Source: a bacterium (lineage in GTDB: Bacteria > UBP13 > UBA5359). From it: a stretch of 64,000 nucleotides of DNA. Under the pieces are notes generated by a model that was given only the letters and a program-made list of their open reading frames with translations, did not search any database and was not told the DNA's origin. Made by a program: the position numbers and the translations under genes. The stretch is taken from positions 7,559 through 71,558 of the forward strand of contig JAQUEL010000002.1 in assembly GCA_028685295.1 (NCBI GenBank). Direction: 5' to 3'. Of the stretch, positions 2,676-55,015 are shown piece after piece. Every line of letters begins with the position of its first letter. Position 1 is the first letter of the stretch.

Positions 2676-3545
2676 TTATTTAATCCAGCCTTTGAGATAA
2701 GGAACAGGGTTTACGGCACTACCATTTTTACGCACCTCAAAGTGCAAATGCGGTCCGGTGGATACGCCCGTTGACCCACTCTTGGCTATGACCTGTCCTC
2801 GGGTGACCCTCTGTCCCGGCTTGACTAAGAGAACGGAATTATGGCCGTAACGGGTGGTTAACCCATTTCCGTGATCTATAATGACCAGATTGCCGTAACC
2901 ACCGGCCTTTCTGGCCAGGATAACCTTGCCGCCACGGCAGGCCTTGACCGTTGTTCCGGTAGATACCGCTATATCCAAACCGGCATGCAGACGCTTGCTT
3001 CTCGATACCGGATGTACCCTTAAGCCGAAACGCGATGTAATGCGTCCGCTGGAAACCGGCCGTAGAAAGCGTTGTGGTTTGGAAACCTGCTTCTTCGGCG
3101 ATGTAACCTGCAACCGGCCGCCCGGAACGATCAATCTGGCACCGGGTACTAATCCTTCATGATCATCGATATCAGGATTGGCATTCAGCAATGCCTCCAG
3201 AGGAATTTTATAAAGAGCAGCTATCTCATCAAGAGTCTGTCCCTCTTCCACATCGTGAATAACACCATCTACGGGTGGTAGATTGAGTATTTGATTTACC
3301 TTGATAAGGTCCGGATTCACAATATTATTGGACCATTGTAATGTGGTAAGCTGTAAACCGTGCATCTCGGCGATCTTACGTAGAGTATCGCCCTTTTTAA
3401 CTACATAGGTAGATATTATTCCCGGCTTAAGTGCCGCTTTACCGGAATTAACACCACCATCACTATCCTGAGCTTCGACCGGTTGCTGACCGCCGGCCAT
3501 GCCTAGATAGATAGCAGCCGCTGCTGCCAGCAGCTTGATATCCAT
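2676..3545 (-). CDS. Secreted LysM-domain M23 peptidase (cell-wall endopeptidase)
   Basis: Signal peptide; two LysM repeats (YVVKKGDTLRKIA, HDVEEGQTLDEIA); M23 motifs HAGLD, YGH and HLHFEV. Confidence 0.93.
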   Translation of the reverse strand: MDIKLLAAAAAIYLGMAGGQQPVEAQDSDGGVNSGKAALKPGIISTYVVKKGDTLRKIAEMHGLQLTTLQWSNNIVNPDLIKVNQILNLPPVDGVIHDVEEGQTLDEIAALYKIPLEALLNANPDIDDHEGLVPGARLIVPGGRLQVTSPKKQVSKPQRFLRPVSSGRITSRFGLRVHPVSRSKRLHAGLDIAVSTGTTVKACRGGKVILARKAGGYGNLVIIDHGNGLTTRYGHNSVLLVKPGQRVTRGQVIAKSGSTGVSTGPHLHFEVRKNGSAVNPVPYLKGWIK

Positions 3546-3561
3546 TTTTTACCTTCCCCCA

Positions 3562-3680
3562 TATTGCCGACGAGGTTAGCTGACGGGTAACGGCCGGTGG
3601 ATAGCCTATTCGCCCAAGCGAAATTCACCCCTAACAACGGTTCCCCCGTTCTTCTTGTGAAGATTAGGCTTTATTTGGGC
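3562..3680 (-). ncRNA. c-di-AMP (ydaO/yuaA) riboswitch
   Basis: Minus strand reads ...AATC...GAACGGGGGAACC...GGGGTGAAT...TAGG...CCCGTCAGCTAACCTCGTCGGC, the hallmark segments of the ydaO/yuaA aptamer. It lies directly upstream of a LysM/M23 gene, a typical target. Boundaries are approximate. Confidence 0.9.
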
Positions 3681-8678: not shown

Positions 8679-8712
8679 CCCCCTGGCACCCAAGCGCCAG
8701 GGGGCTTTCTTT
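8679..8712 (+). terminator. Intrinsic terminator between convergent lon-like and M50 genes
   Basis: 9-bp stem CCCCCTGGC/GCCAGGGGG followed by CTTTCTTT. Confidence 0.7.
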
Positions 8713-12024: not shown

Positions 12025-12162
12025 GGGGTCAGGAGTTTACCTCACTCATCAAGGAGTTATCAAGCTCTTTTATCGCTCTGCTTACGGTGACATAGTTGCT
12101 ATTCTTAAATGCCTGCCTATGGCGCTATTAATGCTAAATGTTAAATGTAAACTCCTGACCCC
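12025..12162. repeat. Perfect 16-bp inverted repeat pair (REP/MITE-like) overlapping the hypB 3' end
   Basis: GGGGTCAGGAGTTTAC at 12025-12040 and its exact reverse complement GTAAACTCCTGACCCC at 12147-12162. Confidence 0.75.
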
Positions 12163-12803
12163 ATGCTCTTCTCCCGCAGCCACCGGACCGCCGTATCTAT
12201 GCCTTCTCCGGTAGTGCAGGAGATATTGATGATAGGAGCTTCCTCATTGACGGCCCTGACAGCGGCGGAAAAGGCCTGCAGATTAAAATCTATAAGGGGT
12301 AAGAGATCGATTTTATTAAGAATAATAATATCGGCCTGAGCAAAAATCGCCGGATACTTGATAGGTTTGTCGTCACCCTCCGGAACACTGGCCACTACCA
12401 TATTAGCCGTTTCTCCCAGCCTGAAGTCGGTAGGGCAGATCAGATTACCTATGTTCTCTATAAAAAGATATCCCGGCCCTGATAATTTAAGATCGTCCAT
12501 AGCCCGATCTACCATGAAGGCGTCCAGATGACATGCCCCGCCGGTATTGATCTGAGTAACAGGCACACCGACGGCGGCAATACGGTCAGCGTCAATAGAG
12601 GAGGCAACATCTCCTTCGATAACTCCTCTGGAGAGCTCTGAGGGAATATTTTCCAGCAGGCGCATGATCAGACTGGTCTTGCCGGCACCGGGAGAGGCCA
12701 TAACATTGATCACCATCAGCTGAGATGCCTTAAATCTGGCTTTATTCCGCTCAGCCTGCTCATCGTTGGCGCTGAGGATAGATTTACGCACGCTAACTCT
12801 CAA
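12141..12803 (-). CDS. hypB: Hydrogenase nickel incorporation GTPase HypB
   Basis: SPGAGKT, EGD, TGGACH, ENIGNLICP, EGDDKPIKYP and NKID motifs. Confidence 0.96.
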   Translation of the reverse strand: MRVSVRKSILSANDEQAERNKARFKASQLMVINVMASPGAGKTSLIMRLLENIPSELSRGVIEGDVASSIDADRIAAVGVPVTQINTGGACHLDAFMVDRAMDDLKLSGPGYLFIENIGNLICPTDFRLGETANMVVASVPEGDDKPIKYPAIFAQADIIILNKIDLLPLIDFNLQAFSAAVRAVNEEAPIINISCTTGEGIDTAVRWLREKSMGSGVYI

Positions 12804-13147
12804 GATTCCACCTCTACACTGTCCAGATAAAGCGCTTTCCCGCCTTCAAGGCGATTGAAACCACCACAGGCGGAGCATTGCAGCGCCAGGCGTCCGTCCC
12901 CGGCATAATTCGTCTGCTTATCGCACTCTTTGCATATCAAATGGGCAGGCTCTATCACCAATCGTAAACAGGCCCCTTCGGCTGCCGTACATTTGCATAG
13001 TTCATTGAAATAAGCCGTCAGGCATTCCTCTTCCACACCAGCAAGCACACCGGCTACCACGGTGATGGCGGTAATCCGGCTATCTTTATCGGGCAGAGCC
13101 TCCAGAGCAGTATCCAGAACAGCCTGAGCTATGGCCGCCTCATGCAA
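12800..13147 (-). CDS. hypA: Hydrogenase nickel metallochaperone HypA
   Basis: N-terminal MHE Ni motif and two CxxC (CKEC, CSAC). Confidence 0.95.
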   Translation of the reverse strand: MHEAAIAQAVLDTALEALPDKDSRITAITVVAGVLAGVEEECLTAYFNELCKCTAAEGACLRLVIEPAHLICKECDKQTNYAGDGRLALQCSACGGFNRLEGGKALYLDSVEVES

Positions 13148-13453
13148 TCAGATCCCCCCTGGCAGACCGTGATTGGGGTTCATGGAGATACTCTTCTTGG
13201 GACAGATATCCGCACAATAACCACAGACAATGCATTTGTAGGGTTCCAATGTCCATGACCTGGGATCCTTGGACACGGTCAGGGCATTGGCTGGGCACTT
13301 ACGAGCACAAACGCCACAGAAGGTACAGGTTGATGGATCCATTTCCACATGTCCTCTGGATCCTGCAAAGGGAGCGCGGCGCTCTACCGGATAACACCTT
13401 GTCTCAGGCTTGCGCAGCACATTATTAATAACGCTTTTCAGCAAACTAACCAT
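13148..13453 (-). CDS. echF: Ech hydrogenase ferredoxin-like subunit EchF
   Basis: Two [4Fe-4S] motifs CTFCGVCARKCP and CIVCGYCADICP; operon position. Confidence 0.9.
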   Translation of the reverse strand: MVSLLKSVINNVLRKPETRCYPVERRAPFAGSRGHVEMDPSTCTFCGVCARKCPANALTVSKDPRSWTLEPYKCIVCGYCADICPKKSISMNPNHGLPGGI

Positions 13454-13468
13454 CTTTTAAGACTCCCA

Positions 13469-14551
13469 TCATCTCTCCGTGCAGCTTATACACGGATCGA
13501 TCGAAAGAACTATAACCGGCACGTTGGCCAGTTCGCAACCCGGCAGCATGGTCAGCAATGGAGCCATGTTGGCAAAGGTTGGGGTCCGCACCCGCAGACG
13601 CTCCAGGTTCTTGGTGCCGTCACCTTTGATATAATAGATGACTTCACCTCTGGGCTGCTCCACCCTGGATATGACTTCGCCCTCAGGATTACCTCTGGCA
13701 GGCACGGCAATATCGCCGGCGGGTATATCCCTGACAGCCTGGCGAACAATATCTATGGATTGATACATCTCCCTTATCCTGACCCGAGCACGAGCATAAG
13801 CATCACCGCCGGTTTCCGTAACGGGAGTTACCTTGATCTCTTTGTAGGCGGCATATCCTGTTTCTCGAAAATCTCTGGCAATGCCGCAGGCTCGGGCCAC
13901 AGGCCCGACACTTCCCAGATCATAAGCCTGTTCTGAAGTTATACGACCGGTACCTACCAGGCGCTGTTTAACACTGTAATCATCAAAGACCACCGGCCGA
14001 ATAATCTCTAAATCACGCTCCAGAACATCTACCGTCTTCAGCACTTCAGCCATAAGCTCTTCGGAGATATCGCGTCTGACGCCTCCTATGATGCAGGTGG
14101 AAATAATTACACGCCCGCCTGCAGTAGCTTCCATAATATCCATTACGGCCTCACGGCTGCGCCAGGATTGCATGAAGAGACTCTCAAAACCGAAAGAATC
14201 CGCCAGCAGCCCCAACCAGAGCAGATGGCTGTGCAGCCGATGCAATTCACTCCAGATAACTCTTAGATAGCGAGCGCGATCGGGCACAGTTACATCCATC
14301 AGCATCTCTATGCCCTGGCAGTATGCCAGAGCATGCATGAAACTACAGATACCGCAAATTCGCTCTACCAGGAAGATATTCTGCGTATATTCCTTCTTCT
14401 CGGCCAGCTTCTCTATGCCTCTATGGACATAACCTATGGCCGGAAGAGCCTCCACAACTTTTTCATCCTCCAGCACCAACCGGAGCTGTAGCGGCTCTGG
14501 AAAAACGGGATGCTGTGGTCCAAAAGGTATTATCGACTTACTTCCGGGCAT
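13469..14551 (-). CDS. echE: Ech [NiFe]-hydrogenase large subunit EchE (group 4)
   Basis: FGPQHP, L1 RICGIC, L2 DPCISCTER ending at the terminus with no cleavable extension. Confidence 0.95.
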   Translation of the reverse strand: MPGSKSIIPFGPQHPVFPEPLQLRLVLEDEKVVEALPAIGYVHRGIEKLAEKKEYTQNIFLVERICGICSFMHALAYCQGIEMLMDVTVPDRARYLRVIWSELHRLHSHLLWLGLLADSFGFESLFMQSWRSREAVMDIMEATAGGRVIISTCIIGGVRRDISEELMAEVLKTVDVLERDLEIIRPVVFDDYSVKQRLVGTGRITSEQAYDLGSVGPVARACGIARDFRETGYAAYKEIKVTPVTETGGDAYARARVRIREMYQSIDIVRQAVRDIPAGDIAVPARGNPEGEVISRVEQPRGEVIYYIKGDGTKNLERLRVRTPTFANMAPLLTMLPGCELANVPVIVLSIDPCISCTER

Positions 14552-14956
14552 CTATTTATCCTCCTCTTCCGGAGCTCCCTGTAATCGAATATCTATAGCT
14601 CTGGAACACCCTTCTCTGCCCATGGGAGCTACGGGAGCATCCTCAGTTAGAAGAAATCTGCCGCCGTAATCTATGACCAGGTCCCTGATGGGAATGGAAA
14701 AAAGGTCCTTGATCTCATTCTCCACCAATAATGCGGCAAAGAAGATGGAAGATATACTGGGCAATTCTTCGCCTTTCTTCAAATACAGACGCAGATTACA
14801 AAGCTCATAATCCTTATCAAAATGGTATAGGATATCGTAACCATCCCCTATATCGGTGCAGGTCATAGTCGCAAAACGATATCTCTGTCTATATTTACCG
14901 GCGACTTCCTGCAGAAGCCTGTCCGGACTCACTGCTACCGTATTCATCAAACTCAT
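14552..14956 (-). CDS. echD: Ech hydrogenase subunit EchD (NuoC-like)
   Basis: YHFD, SISSIF..A.LVENEIKDLF patterns. Start set at ATG 14956 after AGGAG. Confidence 0.88.
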   Translation of the reverse strand: MSLMNTVAVSPDRLLQEVAGKYRQRYRFATMTCTDIGDGYDILYHFDKDYELCNLRLYLKKGEELPSISSIFFAALLVENEIKDLFSIPIRDLVIDYGGRFLLTEDAPVAPMGREGCSRAIDIRLQGAPEEEDK

Positions 14957-14984
14957 TTCATCTCTCCTATGCAAAACCGCTTCT

Positions 14985-15464
14985 TCAAACCTTTTCCGGC
15001 TCACTTACAGGCTGAAGCGTCAGCCGCACTTCAGCACCGGCATGGCGATCTTTCTGATGCACATTCAGAAGCCTGGCCGCCTGCAGTATGCCATCCATGA
15101 TAGCCTCCGGGCGAGGCGGACAGCCAGGTACAAGCACATCTACCGGAATGACCTGATTCACTCCACCCAACACGTTATAGCAATCGGCCATAATACCGCC
15201 GGTAGCGCCACAAGCTCCCAGAGCCACCACTGCTTTGGGAGAGGGCATTTGCTCATAAACGTTCTTCAAAACTCTGACATTGCGGTGATTCACCGCTCCA
15301 CTTACCACCAGGATATCAGCATGCTTAGGGTTTCCCACATGCACAATCCCAAAACGCTCAACATCATATATAGGTGTCAGGCAAGCTAAAAATTCTATAT
15401 CACATCCATTGCAGCTGTTGCAATTAAAATGGACTATCCAGGGTGATTTCTCCCGACAATTCAT
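14985..15464 (-). CDS. echC: Ech hydrogenase small subunit EchC
   Basis: KSPW..H.NCNSCNGCDIE, GACG and PGCPPRP. Confidence 0.95.
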   Translation of the reverse strand: MNCREKSPWIVHFNCNSCNGCDIEFLACLTPIYDVERFGIVHVGNPKHADILVVSGAVNHRNVRVLKNVYEQMPSPKAVVALGACGATGGIMADCYNVLGGVNQVIPVDVLVPGCPPRPEAIMDGILQAARLLNVHQKDRHAGAEVRLTLQPVSEPEKV

Positions 15465-15485
15465 AAGATAAGCACTCCTAAAGAT

Positions 15486-16340
15486 TTAAATATACAGCCA
15501 TAACACATTGGTAACTGCCAGGCCCAGGGCTACCGTCCACATAAACCTGAGCATCCACGGCCAGGTTAGCCTGGCCATAATGTTATCCAGCAGTATTTCA
15601 CAGAAAAAACAGACCGCCGCTATCAGCAGTCCAACCGGGATACTGGTGGCCCAGAACATCGTTATAATAAAGAAGAGCAGAAATATTTCATACCAATGCG
15701 TAATTTCCAGAATAGCCAGAAAGGGGCCTGAATATTCCAGGGTAATGCCTTTGATTATCTCCTGATGTCCGTGATGTGAAGTGGAAAAATCAAAGGGTGA
15801 TTTCTGCAGTTTTATAGCCATTACCATCAAAAAGGCCGGAAAAATAAGCGGTAAAGATAGAAGAAGCGGCTTGCCGGAAGCCAGGATATCTCGTGCCATG
15901 AAACTATCGTTAATCAGATATATACCTACAAGCATCAGAATTAAAATCGGCTCATAGGAGAGCATCTGCATGATCTCTCTCTGGCTTCCTATTCTGCTGT
16001 AAGGTGAGCGCACGCTCATTCCACCCAGGATCAAGGATATAGTGGAAAAAGCCAGAATAAAGAGCGCCATCAGCATATCCTGACCAAGGGCCAGCAGAAC
16101 CACACAGAGAACCATAAATATCAGATGAAGGCCGGCATAGATTATTTGCACTCTGTTGACAACAATGGGTTCCTTATGCAGCAGTTTGATAACATCATAG
16201 ATAGGCTGTAGTAATGGAGGACCGATCCTGCTCTGCATTCTGGCCGTAAGCTTGCGATCGAGCCCCACCAAAAATGCGCCTATAAACGGTACTGCGAATA
16301 TGGCCAGAAGAGCTGTAATTACCGGATCAATCATGATCAC
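15486..16340 (-). CDS. echB: Ech hydrogenase membrane subunit EchB (NuoH-like)
   Basis: DRKLTARMQSRIGPP, SYE, KSPFD and EYSG motifs; hydrophobic. Confidence 0.93.
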   Translation of the reverse strand: MIMIDPVITALLAIFAVPFIGAFLVGLDRKLTARMQSRIGPPLLQPIYDVIKLLHKEPIVVNRVQIIYAGLHLIFMVLCVVLLALGQDMLMALFILAFSTISLILGGMSVRSPYSRIGSQREIMQMLSYEPILILMLVGIYLINDSFMARDILASGKPLLLSLPLIFPAFLMVMAIKLQKSPFDFSTSHHGHQEIIKGITLEYSGPFLAILEITHWYEIFLLFFIITMFWATSIPVGLLIAAVCFFCEILLDNIMARLTWPWMLRFMWTVALGLAVTNVLWLYI

Positions 16341-18241
16341 TTACTTATCACCCCAAACATTATAAATATCAGCGCTATAGCTATCGGGTTGGCCCAGGCC
16401 GTAAGATGAGCTTCGCCGAAAAGCGGGTTCAGATAGTAGCTCCTGATACGAGCAGATTCCCCTTTATCCATCAGAGTTCTGAACTCAAAGGTGGTTTTTG
16501 CGCCCTCTAAATTCTCGCCACAGAGAAAGGGCTGCCGGATATGGCTTTTTTTGATGCCTCTAACCACCAAAAAAAGTACCGGCACCACCAGTGCCAGCAT
16601 GAAAAAAAGCGGCCACTCAATAAAGGCACTGGCGGAATTCATTAGATCCCAAGAACGGGAAGTTACCACTGTTTCGGAGAACATCGCCATGGCCATAGGG
16701 CTTATTACTCGCTTGAACAGTGGAACAACAACTGCAGCAGCAGCAATAATTCCCAGCAACAAAACACCCTTAGTAGCAAACATAGAGAAGGGAACATCTT
16801 CAATCTTATAAACGGGATGATAGGCCACCGTTTGTATTCTTCCTATCCATTTGGACCAGAACACCACTGTCAAAGCGCTGCCCATAATCAGCAAAAAGAG
16901 GACCAGCGGCGACATAATGACTGCTTCCAAAGCCATCCACTTGCCGATAAGCATACCAAAAGGAGGCATCATCATGGAAACCATACCGATTATGGCGATA
17001 ACGGTTGTTATAGGCATCTTCCGCATCAGCCCCTCCATATCCTCGATATCACGGCTACCTATACCCTGCTCTATCGTTCCCACACACAGAAAGAGCATCG
17101 CCTTGGAAATTGCATGGAAGCAGGTAAGCAGGATAGCTGCCGCATAAGCCAGAGGCGTATGGATAGCGGCACAAATAATTATAAGCCCAAGGTTGGCTAT
17201 GGTTGAATAAGCCAGAACCTTCTTCCCGTTGCTCTGGCTGATCGCCATGGCGGAAGCAAGAGCAAAAGTGAAAGCACCAGCTATAGCCACTACCTGTCCC
17301 ATCCTGGTGCCGCCCAGCCCCGGAGCCAGGCGAATGATGAGGTAGACACCGGCTTTGACCATGGTAGTGGAGTGAAGTAGAGCGGATACAGGTGTCGGCG
17401 CTACCATGGCCCCCAGCAGCCAGCTTTGGAAAGGCAATTGTGCCGATTTGGTAAAAGCGGCCAGGCAGATCAATGCCAGCGGCAGCAGAGAGCCAACAGC
17501 TACAAGCTCGTCCAAACTTGCCGAGCCACTGGCAGATATGCTGAGAAATGAAGCCAGCATCAACGCTGCGCCACCCAAAGAATTTATCCATAATGCTCTG
17601 TAGGCACTCTCTCCGGCATCCTCGGTCTTATCGTGACCGATAAGCATGAAGGAGCAGAGCGTCGTCAATTCCCAGAAGATAGCCAGTAATTTCAGATCAT
17701 TGGACATGACCAGGCCGTTCATCACTCCCAGAAAACCTATCAAAAAGAAAAAGAAAAGTCCGGTGCTTCTCATCTGCTCCGGACCATGCACTTCATACCG
17801 TTTCATATAGCCGATAGCATACATAACAATCAGAGGCCCGATGACGGAAACTATAAGCACCATAATCACAGCGAGAAGGTCCACCTTTAGCGTGGGCACA
17901 TGTGCCTGTACTGAGTGCGGCAGCATATCCGAAATAAGACCTATAGCCAACTGGAGAATCCCCAGACCGATAATCAGCATTTTTTTAATGGCAAAGCCTA
18001 TATAAATAATGATGGCGAGAATCAGCAATTCAATCAGCGGCAGAGCCTTCATCAAACCGCTATCAATAGAGAGTGTGAATGGGCCTTGCAAAGCTAGAAG
18101 AATACCGCCTGCCATTATTGTCAAAGCAGATAAAACGATCACAGGTGTCTTGTATCGCCAGCCGGGAGCCAGCATGACTAGCAAGCCAAAAATTAACGGA
18201 CCGAAAATTAACAATAAAGACAAAAAAGTGTACAAATGCAT
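16337..18241 (-). CDS. echA: Ech hydrogenase antiporter-like subunit EchA (NuoL/MrpA-like)
   Basis: WELTT, KSAQLPF..WL..AM.APTPVSALLHSTTMVKAGVY and LAYST motifs. Confidence 0.94.
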   Translation of the reverse strand: MHLYTFLSLLLIFGPLIFGLLVMLAPGWRYKTPVIVLSALTIMAGGILLALQGPFTLSIDSGLMKALPLIELLILAIIIYIGFAIKKMLIIGLGILQLAIGLISDMLPHSVQAHVPTLKVDLLAVIMVLIVSVIGPLIVMYAIGYMKRYEVHGPEQMRSTGLFFFFLIGFLGVMNGLVMSNDLKLLAIFWELTTLCSFMLIGHDKTEDAGESAYRALWINSLGGAALMLASFLSISASGSASLDELVAVGSLLPLALICLAAFTKSAQLPFQSWLLGAMVAPTPVSALLHSTTMVKAGVYLIIRLAPGLGGTRMGQVVAIAGAFTFALASAMAISQSNGKKVLAYSTIANLGLIIICAAIHTPLAYAAAILLTCFHAISKAMLFLCVGTIEQGIGSRDIEDMEGLMRKMPITTVIAIIGMVSMMMPPFGMLIGKWMALEAVIMSPLVLFLLIMGSALTVVFWSKWIGRIQTVAYHPVYKIEDVPFSMFATKGVLLLGIIAAAAVVVPLFKRVISPMAMAMFSETVVTSRSWDLMNSASAFIEWPLFFMLALVVPVLFLVVRGIKKSHIRQPFLCGENLEGAKTTFEFRTLMDKGESARIRSYYLNPLFGEAHLTAWANPIAIALIFIMFGVISK

Positions 18242-18263
18242 GGCCTTCTCCTAATAACGACAT

Positions 18264-18322
18264 AAAAAAACCTGTCACGGCCCACTCATTAAGAAGCCGA
18301 CAAGGTAGCGTAATACACCGCT
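18264..18322 (-). ncRNA. Structured ech leader with intrinsic terminator; candidate Na+-I (DUF1646) riboswitch
   Basis: Minus strand AGCGGTGTATTACGCT hairpin, then CCTTGTCGGCT...GAGTGGGCCGTGACAGG followed by T7. The GGTG / CGG / AGTGGGCC elements match my recollection of the DUF1646 motif; this was not checked with a covariance model. Confidence 0.5.
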
Positions 18323-18351
18323 ATTTTACCTTGCCGATGCAGCCGTGTCAA
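18323..18351 (-). promoter_or_regulatory. Sigma70-type promoter of the ech operon
   Basis: Minus strand TTGACA (18351-18346), 17-nt spacer, TAAAAT (18328-18323), directly after the upstream stop codon. Confidence 0.8.
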
Positions 18352-19668
18352 TTAAGACGCTGCATGGCTTACCCCTATATCGGTGGGTGCCCGACCAAGA
18401 TCTGAAAGAATATTCAGAAGATCGGAGATCTGATTTTCAAGGCTTTCATTCAAATGTGCTCGATCAGGGTAAAGCGTATATTCCCGGCGCAAAGCATCAG
18501 GTGTCAGGCTTATCATAACGGAATTGGCTCCGGCACTCAGGCCCTGCCGACGAGCATCCTTCTCCAGAGTTTCAAAGCTGGTAGTGACGACAATTTTAGC
18601 ATTTCGGGCATCGGCAATACGGGCAACGGCTAATGCCTTAAGCACCTCCACAGCAGCCGGACTATGCGAATTTGCCAATGGCGTCCCCGGATGTGGAATA
18701 AAGGGGCCGAAGGAATACATTTCAGCTTGCAGACTCCTGGTAAGAGAGATATCTCCGAGTATGTCCTCTCTCGTCTGGCCGGGAAGGCCTATAAGCCCTC
18801 CGGTTATAAGCAGATAGCCCATATCGAAAGCAACACGCAGATGCTCCAGACGGCTGTCCAGCCTGCGCCCGGGATGCAACTGCTCATAAAGATGCGGATT
18901 GCTCGTTTCAAACCGCATCAATAATCCTCTGGCACCGGCTTCATACAATCTTTGCACTCCGGGTAGGCCTACCTCACCGCAACTGATAAAGATCAACGCC
19001 GGCTCTCTCTCTCTGATGCCGCTGACTATTTGACAGAGATTATCGATTGAATATGCCGGATCTTCGCCGCTTTGCAGAACCAATGCCTTGAAACCGTACT
19101 TGCTTATGGCTTTGCAAGCGGCTTTCACCACTTCCTCCGGTGTCATCCTGTAAGGCTTCAGCCTCTTGTTACGAGCTGATATGCCGCAATAGCCACAGCT
19201 CTGTCTACAGTAATTGGAAAACTCTATTATGCCGTGGATGCAGCAAGAGTTACCCAGATGCTTATGGCGCAGATAATTGGCCGCCTGCATCAGTCGGGCT
19301 ACATCCTCTTTGCCTTCCAGATTGAGAAGATAAAGCAGATCCTCTTCCGTCACCTCTTCTTCATCGGCAACTATCCGTTCCAATATCAACGACAACCGAT
19401 CGCCGGCTGTTTTATCCATACGCTTGAAACCGGACAGATGCTGGTCTCTCTCCTGGAGTTCAAAGAAGAGCTCTTTCCAGAGTGCCAGCACCTCTTGTGC
19501 CTCGGCATCAGGAACAGCATCTATGACATATCCTCCCTGTGCATAGATATAATCGCCCTCTCTCAGGTTGCTGATCTCATTAACAGCCCGCCGCTGCTCA
19601 CCAAAATAATCTATAATGATGGTACGACCATCAATACTCACTACCCTGCCGGGAATGGAATAACACAT
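18352..19668 (-). CDS. HypC-like domain fused to a HydE-like radical SAM enzyme
   Basis: Residues 1-~67 MCYSIPGRVV...GDYIYAQGGYVI...EAQEVL are HypC/HupF-like. The remainder has IEFSNYCRQSCGYC (CxxxCxxC), VLQSGED, YEQLHP, GPFIPHPGTPL and YTLYPDR, as in the HydE/PylB/BioB subgroup. Confidence 0.85.
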   Translation of the reverse strand: MCYSIPGRVVSIDGRTIIIDYFGEQRRAVNEISNLREGDYIYAQGGYVIDAVPDAEAQEVLALWKELFFELQERDQHLSGFKRMDKTAGDRLSLILERIVADEEEVTEEDLLYLLNLEGKEDVARLMQAANYLRHKHLGNSCCIHGIIEFSNYCRQSCGYCGISARNKRLKPYRMTPEEVVKAACKAISKYGFKALVLQSGEDPAYSIDNLCQIVSGIREREPALIFISCGEVGLPGVQRLYEAGARGLLMRFETSNPHLYEQLHPGRRLDSRLEHLRVAFDMGYLLITGGLIGLPGQTREDILGDISLTRSLQAEMYSFGPFIPHPGTPLANSHSPAAVEVLKALAVARIADARNAKIVVTTSFETLEKDARRQGLSAGANSVMISLTPDALRREYTLYPDRAHLNESLENQISDLLNILSDLGRAPTDIGVSHAAS

Positions 19669-20610: not shown

Positions 20611-22433
20611 TTACATTTCTACTCGGGTCACAACCCCCTGTATCTTGCCTGCAGGCAATTTATAAAACTGGACGAAAGTCGGTGCCAAACGTTTGAGCAT
20701 AGCAAAAACCGTCCAGAAAAAGTTATTGGTAGTTATATCTTCCACACCATAGAAAATGACTCTCTCCTCAATATCGTTCTGCTTCAGCAGGCTCTCTATA
20801 TCCAGAACCTCCCTGTAGCCGGCCCAGAACTCCAGAAGATCCATACCGGAAGCCCTATTGCGGTAGATTTCCGTTGTCAAGCCGTAAGGTTCGTCGGTCC
20901 TACGGACGGAGACCAGAATATTTCTGTCATAGATAATACCGCTATCCAGAATACAGTGCACCAGATATGGATGCACGATATCGACTGTTCTATTAAAGAA
21001 CAATGCCGCGCCCTCAAGCCTCTTCCCCTTCTCATATAATTTTTCATAGCGGCGTATGAAACTCTTCATATCCATGGGGCACATAGCATGGTAAAGTGCC
21101 TTCTGCCCACTAGTCCAGATCAGGATGGTAGCCAGAGGAATAGCAGCCAGAATCAGGGACCAGTAACCTCCATGACTGAGCTTGTTAAGGTTGGCAATCA
21201 GAAAGACGGCATCAACCACTGTCACCATAGCTGCAACAGGCGCCTTCCAGGAAGATGAGCGAGAGAAGATCATGGTCATCATTATCCCGGTTATAGTATT
21301 GTTCCTGTAACGGCCAGGCCATAAGCAGCCGCCAAATTTTCCGATCGGCGAAAAACAAGCATAATAAAAACAACAGCTACCATGAGGGACCAATTAACGG
21401 AACCTAGGTATATTTGCGATTTAAGCTTGCTGGAAGTATAGCTTATTCTCAACCAGGGCATGATACGAGTGGTAATTCCCTGATAAACTATGGAATAGAC
21501 ACCGCTGATCAAGGACTGGGAAGCAATGACAGTGGCAAGGATAGTCAGTATCAGAGTAGGTATGTAGAGTATATTCAACTCCTCGCGGAACATACCGAAG
21601 AGGATGTTCTGTGCTTCGGGATGCCGCAGGATAAAGGCACCCTGCCCAAGGTAATTGATAACCAGGGCAAGGAAGACGAAATACCAGGCCCTGATTATCG
21701 GACGTTTCCCCAGGTGTCCCATATCGGCATACAAAGCCTCCCCGCCGGTAGCACAAAGTATGACTTCCGAGAGAATCAATCCACCGGCAATTCCGTTATG
21801 CATAAGGAAGCTTAAAGCGTATAAAGGATTTACCGCCTTGATTACCCCGGGCAGGCTCTGTATGGAGATTATTCCGGAGACAGCTAAGGTTATGAACCAT
21901 ATCACCATCAACGGCCCAAATGCTCCGGCCACTTTATCCGTTCCCTTGTATTGGAAGAAAAAGAGGCTGATGGCTATCAATGCGGCAATAAGAATAATCA
22001 TCCATTGATGCATGCCGGCCAGGCCGGGTACCAGGCGCATACCTTCAACAGCGGAGAGAATAGTTATGGCCGGCGTTATGACGCCGTCTCCCAGTATCAA
22101 CGATATCCCCAGAAAGGATAAAAAGCCGACAAAGGCTATCTGCCGGTTGCTTTTCAGGAGTTTGACCAGAATCTCTTTGAGAACAACAGTTCCTCCCTGT
22201 CCATCTTGCTCCAAACTCATGGCCAGCCAGGCATACTCAATGGTAACTAGAAGAATTAGAGTCCAGACGATCAGCGACAGTATACCGAAAACGTTGCTCT
22301 CTGTAGGCTTTATCAAAGCCATGATAACCGTCAAGGTATATATGGGACTGGTACCGATATCGCCAAAGACCAACCCCATAGCTTTGACGATACCCTCCCA
22401 AAAAGAGTACCCCTCATTCCTGTGCCGAGACAT
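20611..22433 (-). pseudogene. kup: KUP/HAK/KT potassium transporter split by a 1-nt frameshift (true pseudogene or sequencing error)
   Basis: ORF 21291-22433 carries GDIGTSPIY, GDGVITPAI, TGGEALYADMGH and AAAYGLAVTG. ORF 20611-21393 continues in another frame (TITGIMM...KLSHGGY). One base is missing between 21298 and 21297. Confidence 0.85.
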
Positions 22434-53020: not shown

Positions 53021-53170
53021 TCCCCCCTCAGCTTACCGACAAACGGTCATCTTTATTAAATTCATTTTACACAATATCCGCATCAGCTACAACAGGTGCT
53101 TGACACCGTTGCCGGCGGCAGGTAATATACGGTTAAAGTAATTTATAATTTATTTGAGGTTCGATTTCTT

Positions 53171-53272
53171 ATGGACCGTTACACAAATAACATATATACC
53201 CTTCCGGTAACCCGCCTCGTAGTGGTAGAGCTGGGCGTAGTAGTACGCACTGCAAATACCAATGCGCCATAG
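53171..53272 (+). CDS. ilvBN leader peptide (IvbL-like), 33 aa
   Basis: MDRYTNNIYTLPVTRLVVVELGVVVRTANTNAP* with 7 Val and 3 Leu codons. It ends in NAP like E. coli IvbL. Confidence 0.85.
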   Translation: MDRYTNNIYTLPVTRLVVVELGVVVRTANTNAP

Positions 53273-53302
53273 CGGGATAAACTGAAATCAAAACAGAGAT
53301 CT

Positions 53303-53338
53303 TAAGCCCCGTCGGCGCTCCGACGGGGCTTATTTTTT
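53303..53338 (+). terminator. Attenuator terminator of ilvBN
   Basis: 13-bp perfect stem TAAGCCCCGTCGG/CCGACGGGGCTTA, 4-nt loop, T6. Confidence 0.92.
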
Positions 53339-53350
53339 GAGGTGATGATA

Positions 53351-55015
53351 ATGAAGATAACCGGAGCTCAGTTGATAATCCATCTGTTGGAAAGACAGGG
53401 AATACGGACCATTGCCGGCATTCCTGGTGGAGCCAACCTGCCGCTCTACGATGCCCTCTCCCAAAGCGACAAAATCCGTCACATATTGACGCGACATGAA
53501 CAAGGAGCCGCCTTCATTGCCCAGGGCATGGCACGCGTCAGCGGCCGACCGGCTGTTTGCTTTGCCACCTCCGGCCCCGGCGCCGTTAACACGCTGACAG
53601 CTATAGCTGATGCCAGGATGGATTCTATCCCGGTAATCTGTATCACCGGTCAGGTCTCCGGCGGAATGATAGGAACAGATGCTTTCCAGGAGATAGATAC
53701 CTACGGCATGAGCATTCCCATCACAAAACACAATTTCCTGGTACGCTCAGTAGATGAGTTATTAGAAGTGATACCAAAAGCCTTCTGCATTGCTGCCTCT
53801 GGAAGGCCCGGTCCGGTGCTGATCGATATCCCCAGAGATGTTCAAAGCGGATTTCTGGAATTTGAGGAATGGCCTGAGCCAGGCCGGCCGAGCTCGCTGC
53901 CGCAATTTAAAATGCAGGATATCAAAGAAGCGGCAAAAATGATCAATAACGCCCGGCGGCCTGTTCTATATCTCGGCGGCGGCATTATTCACGCCGAAGC
54001 CGGGAATACTGCACTTCGGCTGATGGAGAAGGCCTCTCTGCCGGCCGTTGCCACCTTAATGGGCCTGGGTGCCGTACCGAGCGACCACCCACTCTTTATG
54101 GGCATGCTGGGCATGCACGCAGCCCGCTATACCAACCTGGCCCTTGAAGAGTGTGACTTGCTGATAGCCGTCGGCGTTCGCTTTGATGACCGGGCCACCG
54201 GCAGAGTGGAGCGCTTTTGCTCCAAAGCAGCAATTATCCATATCGATATCGATCCTGCTGAAATCGGTAAACTCAAATTAGCTCATACCGGCATTGCCGG
54301 TGATGCCGGACAGGTAATGGAAGCCTTGTTGCCGTTGATAGATAGTAATCTCCGCCGGGAATGGCTTGGTCATATTGAAGAGTTAAAGAGGCATTACCCT
54401 CTGCAAATGCCAGGCAAAGACGATCCGAGCACGCCTTACGGTTTGATAACTCAAGTGGCTGCTTTCTTAGATGATAATGCCGTCATCACCACTGACGTCG
54501 GACAGCATCAGATGTGGACAGCTCAGGCCTATCCGCTTAGCCGGCCGCGTTGCTGGCTTACCTCTGGTGGCCTGGGAACTATGGGCTTCGGTCTGCCGGC
54601 GGCCATAGGCGCAGCCCTTGCCCTGCCCGATCGGACCGTAGTCTGCTTCAGTGGCGACGGCAGCCTGATGATGAACATTCAGGAACTGGCCACCGCTGTG
54701 GAAGAGAATATCAACGTAAAAATCGTTCTGCTGGACAACAACGCCCTGGGGCTGGTACGCCAGCAACAGGACCTCTTTTTTGACGGGCGCTTTTTCGCCT
54801 CAGATTATCGCTACCGGCCGGATTTTGTCAGAATAGCCGAGGGCTTCGGCATGAGAGCTGTCAGCCTGGGAAGTGCTGTTGATCCGGCAGCAACTCTGGC
54901 CGATGCTCTGAGCACGCCGGGACCGTACCTTATTCATGCCCCGATAAGTGCAGATGAGAGAGTCTACCCCATGGTGCCTCCCGGAGGCGCCAACATAGAT
55001 ATGATTGGAGATTAA
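53351..55015 (+). CDS. ilvB: Acetohydroxyacid synthase large subunit (AHAS I-like)
   Basis: TGAQLI..LLE.QGI, RHEQGAAF, GTDAFQE, DVGQHQMW, GDGS.MMN. Start set after GAGGTG. Confidence 0.96.
   Translation: MKITGAQLIIHLLERQGIRTIAGIPGGANLPLYDALSQSDKIRHILTRHEQGAAFIAQGMARVSGRPAVCFATSGPGAVNTLTAIADARMDSIPVICITGQVSGGMIGTDAFQEIDTYGMSIPITKHNFLVRSVDELLEVIPKAFCIAASGRPGPVLIDIPRDVQSGFLEFEEWPEPGRPSSLPQFKMQDIKEAAKMINNARRPVLYLGGGIIHAEAGNTALRLMEKASLPAVATLMGLGAVPSDHPLFMGMLGMHAARYTNLALEECDLLIAVGVRFDDRATGRVERFCSKAAIIHIDIDPAEIGKLKLAHTGIAGDAGQVMEALLPLIDSNLRREWLGHIEELKRHYPLQMPGKDDPSTPYGLITQVAAFLDDNAVITTDVGQHQMWTAQAYPLSRPRCWLTSGGLGTMGFGLPAAIGAALALPDRTVVCFSGDGSLMMNIQELATAVEENINVKIVLLDNNALGLVRQQQDLFFDGRFFASDYRYRPDFVRIAEGFGMRAVSLGSAVDPAATLADALSTPGPYLIHAPISADERVYPMVPPGGANIDMIGD

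Follow-up and report, generated by a model that had tools for sequence, protein, structure and literature searches.

The ech leader lies on the minus strand of a 64,000-nucleotide stretch of bacterial DNA, referred to here as the window, and all its features fall between two co-oriented genes separated by an intergenic spacer of 110 nt. The upstream gene (18352..19668, minus strand) joins a HypC/HupF N-terminal domain to a HydE-like radical-SAM domain (Pfam HupF_HypC, Radical_SAM and BATS), scores 232.9 bits against NCBIfam HydE, under the cutoff of 254.6, and ends in a TAA stop codon at 18354-18352. This HypC/HupF-HydE fusion is unusual in that it sets a maturase of the [FeFe]-hydrogenase type beside a [NiFe] Ech operon, and the relatives at 94% and 82% identity have kept it. 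Downstream, on the same strand, the operon echA-B-C-D-E-F, hypA, hypB occupies 12141..18241 (Pfam). Its first gene, echA (16337-18241, Proton_antipo_M), encodes a Mrp/NuoL-type antiporter-like subunit according to both Pfam and NCBIfam, and echE encodes the NiFe large subunit (Pfam). The Shine-Dalgarno (SD) sequence AGGAG at 18252-18248 and the echA start codon ATG at 18241-18239 close the spacer (18239..18252), and the block TTAGGAGAAGGCCATGCA around them is invariant across all relatives in the alignment. Farther upstream on the minus strand, at 20611-22433, a Kup-type K+ transporter is divided in the window into two overlapping ORFs (380 aa and 260 aa) and forms one gene of 589-607 aa in related contigs; the split in the window reflects a frameshift (pseudogene) or an error in the sequence.

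To place the leader in an evolutionary context, we used relatives identified through EchA. A search of genomes and metagenomes returned mostly relatives at ≤56% identity, among which the closest named ones belong to Candidatus Ozemobacteraceae (50-56%), plus one metagenome contig, L090, at 82%. A large protein collection supplied contigs with an identical EchA (L081-L088), a 94% clade (L171-L173) and an 82% clade (L089, L090 and L174). The hypC/hydE-to-echA layout is shared by all of these except L088, whose sequence ahead of echA is limited to 87 nt, and L087, where an IS element stands in place of the 3' end of hypC/hydE. Since their intergenic DNA is identical, the eight contigs with an identical EchA are uninformative except for the IS variant L087, and ech loci at ≤50% identity were uninformative.

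The sequence-only reading of this locus had proposed that ech has its own promoter, and the comparison supports this. The −35 hexamer TTGACA (18346..18351) starts one base past the upstream stop codon and is followed, after a 17-nt spacer, by the −10 hexamer TAAAAT (18323..18328), which together give an 11/12 match. No other site in the 64-kb window reaches 11/12; chance alone would give about 1.3 sites of this quality in a window of this size, so the weight of the promoter comes from its position and conservation and not from the match itself. The −35 hexamer is identical in L089, L090, L174, L171 and L173. In the 82% clade, both hexamers are identical at 12/12 positions and the 17-nt spacing is unchanged, whereas the spacer is identical at 6/17 positions and the part of the ech leader region outside the hexamers and the ribosome-binding site at only 28/69 (41%). 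With the latter rate, the naive probability of 12/12 identical positions is ~2e-5; the promoter, with its hexamers unchanged amid 41% identity, thus appears to be under selection. The hexamers, a spacing in the 16-18-nt class and the conservation among relatives support the assignment of a candidate σ70-type promoter to ech. From the promoter geometry, transcription is predicted to start 5-9 nt past the −10 hexamer (18314..18318), at about position 18316.

The IS variant provides a natural rearrangement of the same region. In L087, a JGI metagenome contig, an IS element of ~1.1 kb with an rve transposase (712-1842) sits precisely where the hypC/hydE stop codon meets the −35 hexamer of ech and is flanked by a 6-bp duplication, CTTAAT. 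The junction corresponds to window positions 18356-18351, and TTGACA and the whole leader are intact, consistent with an autonomous promoter. In the same contig, the first 590 nt are an inverted piece of hypC/hydE, reflecting a rearrangement or a misassembly. In L172 (266-403, coverage 2.2), T-to-G changes are found in the −10 hexamer (GAAAAT) and in the leader, and these are probably assembly errors rather than real variants.

Between the predicted start and the SD, we found a terminator-type hairpin followed by a U-tract. The hairpin (18271..18306; 5' arm ACCTTGTCGGCTT, 3' arm GGGCCGTGACAGG) was obtained from both the individual folds and the consensus fold; it is imperfect, spans 35-37 nt, contains three bulges and adjoins the U-tract, and its folding energy in the promoter-derived RNA is about −11 to −12 kcal/mol. 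The U-tract is T7 in the window (18264..18270) and TTCTTTAT in the 82% clade, and the leader from the predicted start to its end measures ~53 nt. A stem containing G-C pairs directly before a U-run on the transcribed strand, the arrangement of an intrinsic terminator, is present in the window and in L089 and L090. A built-in terminator scanner missed the ech hairpin because it limits loops to 8 nt and the loop here exceeds that length. Taken alone, the ech leader folds no better than its shuffled counterparts (z = +0.46), so the evidence for the hairpin is comparative and not thermodynamic.

The comparative evidence comes from the 82% clade. Its stem has a wholly different sequence from the window's (CCCCACCGGCUUG...CAAGC...GGUGGGG), and the pairing is kept in the consensus fold. 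In L089 and L090, CCCCACC pairs with GGUGGGG, UUCUUUAU follows directly, and the folding energy is −17.6 to −18.6 kcal/mol; the inner stem differs between the two by a register shift, with the hairpin retained. Three of the six basal pairs are compensatory between the window and the 82% clade (UA to CG, GC to AU and UA to CG), and several further pairs of the hairpin are changed on one side only with pairing kept. In the hairpin consensus, 100% of cells are paired, compared with 46-56% when the 3' partners are slid, and in the folds of all four lineages, whether of the short or the long transcript, a helix adjoins the U-tract. A hairpin whose sequence is replaced while its pairing is kept appears to be under selection. 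We interpret the covariation, which comes from only two independent clades and is supportive rather than statistically strong, as indicating that the leader hairpin has probably been maintained in evolution.

In addition to pairing, parts of the leader are conserved in sequence. These are the 5' leader, GGUGURUU.CG in RNA; the motif CGGCTTSTT within the hairpin (CGGCUUSUU in RNA), which belongs to the 5' arm; and the stretch that runs from the U-tract up to the start codon. In two alignments, the conserved 5' leader segment is GGTGTATTACGCT in the window (18307..18319) and GGTGTGTT-CGTCT in L089. The conservation of sequence in the 5' leader and the 5' arm hints that these segments may have an additional partner.

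The sequence-only reading had described a leader of ~60 nt with two hairpins ending in T7. One hairpin with T7 was recovered and is conserved, as described above; the other, a 4-bp pairing of AGCG (18322-18319) with CGCT (18310-18307), did not stand. Its first strand falls between the −10 hexamer and the predicted start, so the pairing would be absent from the promoter-derived RNA, and it is not part of the consensus fold. Within the promoter-derived RNA, neither the folds nor the consensus fold contain a pairing alternative to the terminator. The sole mini-ORF of the leader, AUG-AGU-GGG-CCG-UGA (4 codons, within the hairpin), lacks an SD and is missing from L089 and L090. A leader-peptide attenuator was rejected at ech, since no leader ORF bears an SD and none is conserved.

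From these observations, our best explanation is that the ech leader consists of a σ70-type promoter and a promoter-proximal intrinsic terminator, with no ligand-sensing aptamer, which would both end upstream transcripts and attenuate ech; we give this explanation about an even chance of being correct. RNA polymerase would start at ~18316, and ~46 nt further on the nascent RNA would fold into the imperfect, GC-containing hairpin followed by U7. A fraction of the polymerases would stop before echA, and the remainder would yield an echABCDEF-hypAB mRNA. The gap between the U-tract and the SD is only ~17 nt, too short for a promoter beyond the terminator, so that all ech transcripts would pass the element. 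The same hairpin and U-tract would end transcripts arriving from the hypC/hydE-like gene, thereby shielding ech from transcription that begins upstream. Within the clade of the window, RNA copied from the −35 region and the spacer would pair with both arms and thus strengthen the structure in upstream transcripts. We infer termination itself, and likewise that read-through would be set by the leakiness of the terminator and not by a cis-acting sensor; this leakiness may arise from the weak, bulged stem in the window's clade and from the interrupted U-tract in the 82% clade. In its widest form, this reading has read-through set either by terminator leakiness or by a trans-acting factor. Against this explanation, the hairpin in the short transcript of the window is weak (−11 to −12 kcal/mol with three bulges) and the leader folds at the level of shuffles. 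A terminator behind a promoter with no sensor also seems wasteful. Further points against it are the conservation of the 5' leader and 5' arm in sequence and not just in pairing, the two-clade basis of the covariation, and the finding that a hairpin and T-run before echA does not characterise ech operons in general.

The window itself contains a comparable arrangement at ilvB. The ilvB leader (53100-53340, plus strand) has a TTGACA-17-TAATAT promoter, an SD, a Val/Leu-rich leader ORF of 33 codons (53171-53272, MDRYTNNIYTLPVTRLVVVELGVVVRTANTNAP) and a hairpin, TAAGCCCCGTCGGCGCTCCGACGGGGCTTA, followed by T6 with a folding energy of −24.7 kcal/mol, 12 nt before the SD of the gene. That gene (53351-55015, plus strand) encodes the large subunit of acetolactate synthase (975 bits against a cutoff of 870). 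Its attenuator shows that the organism uses σ70-like promoters and has leader terminators within a few nucleotides upstream of an SD, and canonical terminators are also found at gene ends in the window, for example at 8706. Like the ilv, leu and trp leader-peptide attenuators, ilvB included, the ech leader has a promoter and then a hairpin and U-run that precede the first gene's SD by a few nucleotides. Unlike ilvB, it has neither an SD-bearing leader ORF nor an alternative antiterminator pairing, and its length to the end of the U-tract is ~53 nt compared with ~210 nt. The rplL-rpoB attenuator of E. coli is a constitutive partial terminator between co-oriented genes, where a fixed fraction of polymerases passes and sets the relative expression of the two. 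The ech terminator resembles it in being an intrinsic terminator between two co-oriented genes, with a predicted fraction of read-through. In contrast to rplL-rpoB, ech has a conserved promoter right after the upstream stop codon and before the terminator, which would give two transcript classes.

The main rival to a leaky terminator is a terminator controlled in trans. Here the leader would be a conditional attenuator: a protein or sRNA would bind the GGUGURUU.CG leader, the CGGCUUSUU arm or both, block the hairpin and switch ech on, in response to signals such as redox state, H2 or nickel. The sequences of the 5' leader and 5' arm are conserved and the 3' arm changes to follow; all ech transcripts must pass the terminator, and neither a cis aptamer nor a leader peptide is present to control it. 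Protein-mediated antitermination leaders include the RAT targets of BglG/SacY, the two-hairpin targets of ANTAR proteins, and the PyrR and TRAP leaders. The ech leader is similar to these in being short and in having a terminator and a conserved sequence that overlaps its 5' arm; it differs in that no Rfam match to the RAT, ANTAR, PyrR or TRAP leaders was found there. Neither a dual hexaloop nor a RAT-like element is conserved, and the UUGUUAC in the loop of L089 is lost in L090. The neighbours scanned include no cognate antitermination regulator gene and no antiterminator-type RNA-binding gene of any other kind. A search for the conserved leader motifs as a regulon signal, in the rest of the window and in 171 other loci, found no recurrence. 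Conservation beside a start site can also reflect promoter function, and the comparators are few. For these reasons, we consider trans control possible but doubtful.

A broader alternative, which we think rather unlikely, is that the ech leader acts as a genuine switch of a type not described before. It would be either a tiny cis element, made up of the 5' leader and the 5' arm and antiterminated by a protein or sRNA, or, in the window's clade, a promoter embedded in the terminator of the upstream gene, with the fate of the polymerase decided by the origin of the transcript and by whether a ribosome is just completing the upstream ORF.

The second form of such a switch turns on RNA that enters from upstream. 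The sequence-only reading had pointed out a complementarity between the promoter spacer and a terminator arm, and we confirmed it: the element CGGCAAGGTA (18327..18336), which is present as RNA only in transcripts from upstream, is complementary to part of the 5' arm, TACCTTGTCG (18307-18298), through 9 Watson-Crick pairs and 1 G.U pair. In the 94% clade, two A-to-G changes, one on each side, keep this pairing as G.U, a slight argument for a role at the RNA level there; the 82% clade lacks the complementarity. In the long transcript of the window's clade, the hairpin between the spacer and the 5' arm forms, and the freed 3' arm pairs with RNA of the −35 region (UUGACACGGCU with GGCCGUGACAG), so that a helix still ends 1 nt before the U-tract. 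The long transcript folds at −30.4 kcal/mol (z = −2.9), and 2/200 shuffles fold as well. The six nucleotides adjoining the U-tract are paired with a probability of about 0.7 in short and long transcripts alike, and for the 82% clade every transcript context gives the local hairpin with P = 1.0. The long-transcript structure of the window's clade is thus predicted to be, at equilibrium, a larger terminator and not an antiterminator. The further proposal that read-through transcripts form an antiterminator finds no support at equilibrium, where this helix persists, and the pairing it needs is absent in the 82% clade.

An antiterminating role for the same pairing would be kinetic or ribosome-dependent. 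In RNA derived from hypC/hydE, the spacer would sequester the 5' arm, and a ribosome terminating on the upstream gene would mask UUGACACGGCU, the only other partner of the 3' arm; we judge this unlikely. Improbable to the same degree is its consequence, that translated upstream transcripts would read into ech while promoter-derived transcripts are attenuated. The 10-bp spacer:arm pairing does exist, the long transcript folds better than shuffles, the G.U substitutions of the 94% clade suit RNA rather than a DNA palindrome, and the distal partner begins right after the stop codon, with UAA 1 nt before the −35 region. However, the 3' arm is still paired beside the U-tract at equilibrium, the 82% clade has one strong local hairpin in every context instead, and the ribosome-masking step is conjectural.

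We also considered whether the element acts at the level of the 5' UTR and not as a terminator in vivo. It could be a stabiliser of the 5' UTR, or it could control translation by drawing the SD and start codon into pairs with the U-tract and 5' leader. In its favour, the consensus fold contains a pairing of the U-tract and GGAGAA and another between the 5' leader and the AUG region, and these pairs survive several one-sided changes. The pairing probability of the SD and AUG is nevertheless no higher than when the upstream part is shuffled, and the helices involved are almost invariant and hence carry no covariation. SD/AUG sequestration was rejected because it did not rise above shuffled controls, and we hold that the element is quite improbably a stabiliser or translational control of this kind.

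At the DNA level, the inverted repeat formed by CGGCAAGGTA, N19 and TACCTTGTCG could represent widely spaced half-sites for a repressor, and it straddles the −10 hexamer and the start site as an operator might. This is very unlikely, given that the repeat is absent in the 82% clade, that the two changes of the 94% clade break the DNA symmetry and keep the RNA pairing, and that a 19-bp spacing is unusual.

The weakest alternative is the one the sequence-only reading had favoured, in which the leader belongs to the Na+-I (DUF1646) riboswitches, intact or degenerate, and Na+ would block the terminator and switch on a Na+-linked Ech; on the evidence below we find it hardly credible. Two extended stems, P1 and P2, make up the Na+-I aptamer, whose conserved nucleotide clusters lie at the P1 base and within the P2 loop (White et al. 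2022, PMC9337991). It comprises 66 nt, in-line probing used constructs of 53-66 nt, and P2 is given up when the terminator forms (PMC9337991). Two representatives are given in the supplement, the validated kefB RNA of C. acetobutylicum and the mgtA RNA of L. garvieae (an in-line probing construct), and GGUUGRGC and UUCAAGAG are common to both (PMC9337991). The ech leader does share with Na+-I RNAs a promoter followed by a 5' leader in which an intrinsic terminator with a U-run serves as the platform, located before genes for a putative cation-translocating membrane complex (PMC9337991), and the short elements proposed as similar, GGTG, CGG and AGTGGGCC, are present. However, the Rfam search of 18100-18500 (401 nt) at E≤10 gave three noise hits and no DUF1646, and no relevant match was found in L089, L090, L092, L001 and L003 at E≤1. 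GGUUGRGC and UUCAAGAG are absent from all four ech leader types. The nearest approaches to them have 2-3 mismatches per block and 4-5 for the ordered pair and are equally frequent in shuffles, and local alignments of the ech leaders with the two Na+-I RNAs are no better than those of shuffles. From the predicted start to the hairpin base there are only ~10-13 nt, which leaves no room for an aptamer of ~50-66 nt with P1 and P2; the GGG-loop context is likewise missing. We therefore rejected membership of the ech leader in the Na+-I/DUF1646 class.

The Rfam pipeline works in the window sequence, as its only match at the gathering threshold across the whole window, a c-di-AMP riboswitch at 3550-3680 (minus strand), makes clear. 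A plasmid collection scanned as a positive control for the DUF1646 model contained no match, which is a caveat on the negative result with that model. The c-di-AMP riboswitch scores 80.8 bits against a gathering threshold of 38 and immediately precedes a gene for a LysM/M23 peptidoglycan hydrolase (2676-3545), an association typical for this class.

The words "hydrogenase" and "NADH" occur 0 times each in the text of PMC9337991, so hydrogenase genes are not mentioned there, and a literature search on ech and riboswitches gave no relevant precedent. A Na+ riboswitch would have implied regulation of Ech by Na+ and suggested Na+ coupling; once the riboswitch reading failed, no evidence for a Na+-regulated or Na+-pumping Ech was left, and that inference is now to be dropped.

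With the leaky terminator as the preferred reading, the ech leader is a clean case of a conserved promoter upstream of a predicted intrinsic terminator, serving an energy-converting hydrogenase operon from an uncultured lineage about which little has been learned. Because ech transcription must pass the terminator, ech expression can be tested by Term-seq or by read-through ratios in metatranscriptomes. Beyond ech expression in the host organism, the element is of local interest only.

Finally, we surveyed ech loci more widely. A hairpin and T-run 12-70 nt before echA was found at 28/151 ech loci drawn from genomes and metagenomes (18.5%) and at 92/770 random positions (12%), which indicates that it is not a family-wide trait of ech. 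Among the distant loci, L001, from a PVC-group MAG, has a strong look-alike hairpin and T-run at −29 from echA. L001 (3810-3945), L092 and L003 each contain a TTGACA or TTGACT box and then a small hairpin and T-run overlapping the putative −10 hexamer, and L001 and L092 have a second hairpin with T6-7 ~20-35 nt before echA. A terminator overlapping the ech promoter may thus recur independently in distant loci.
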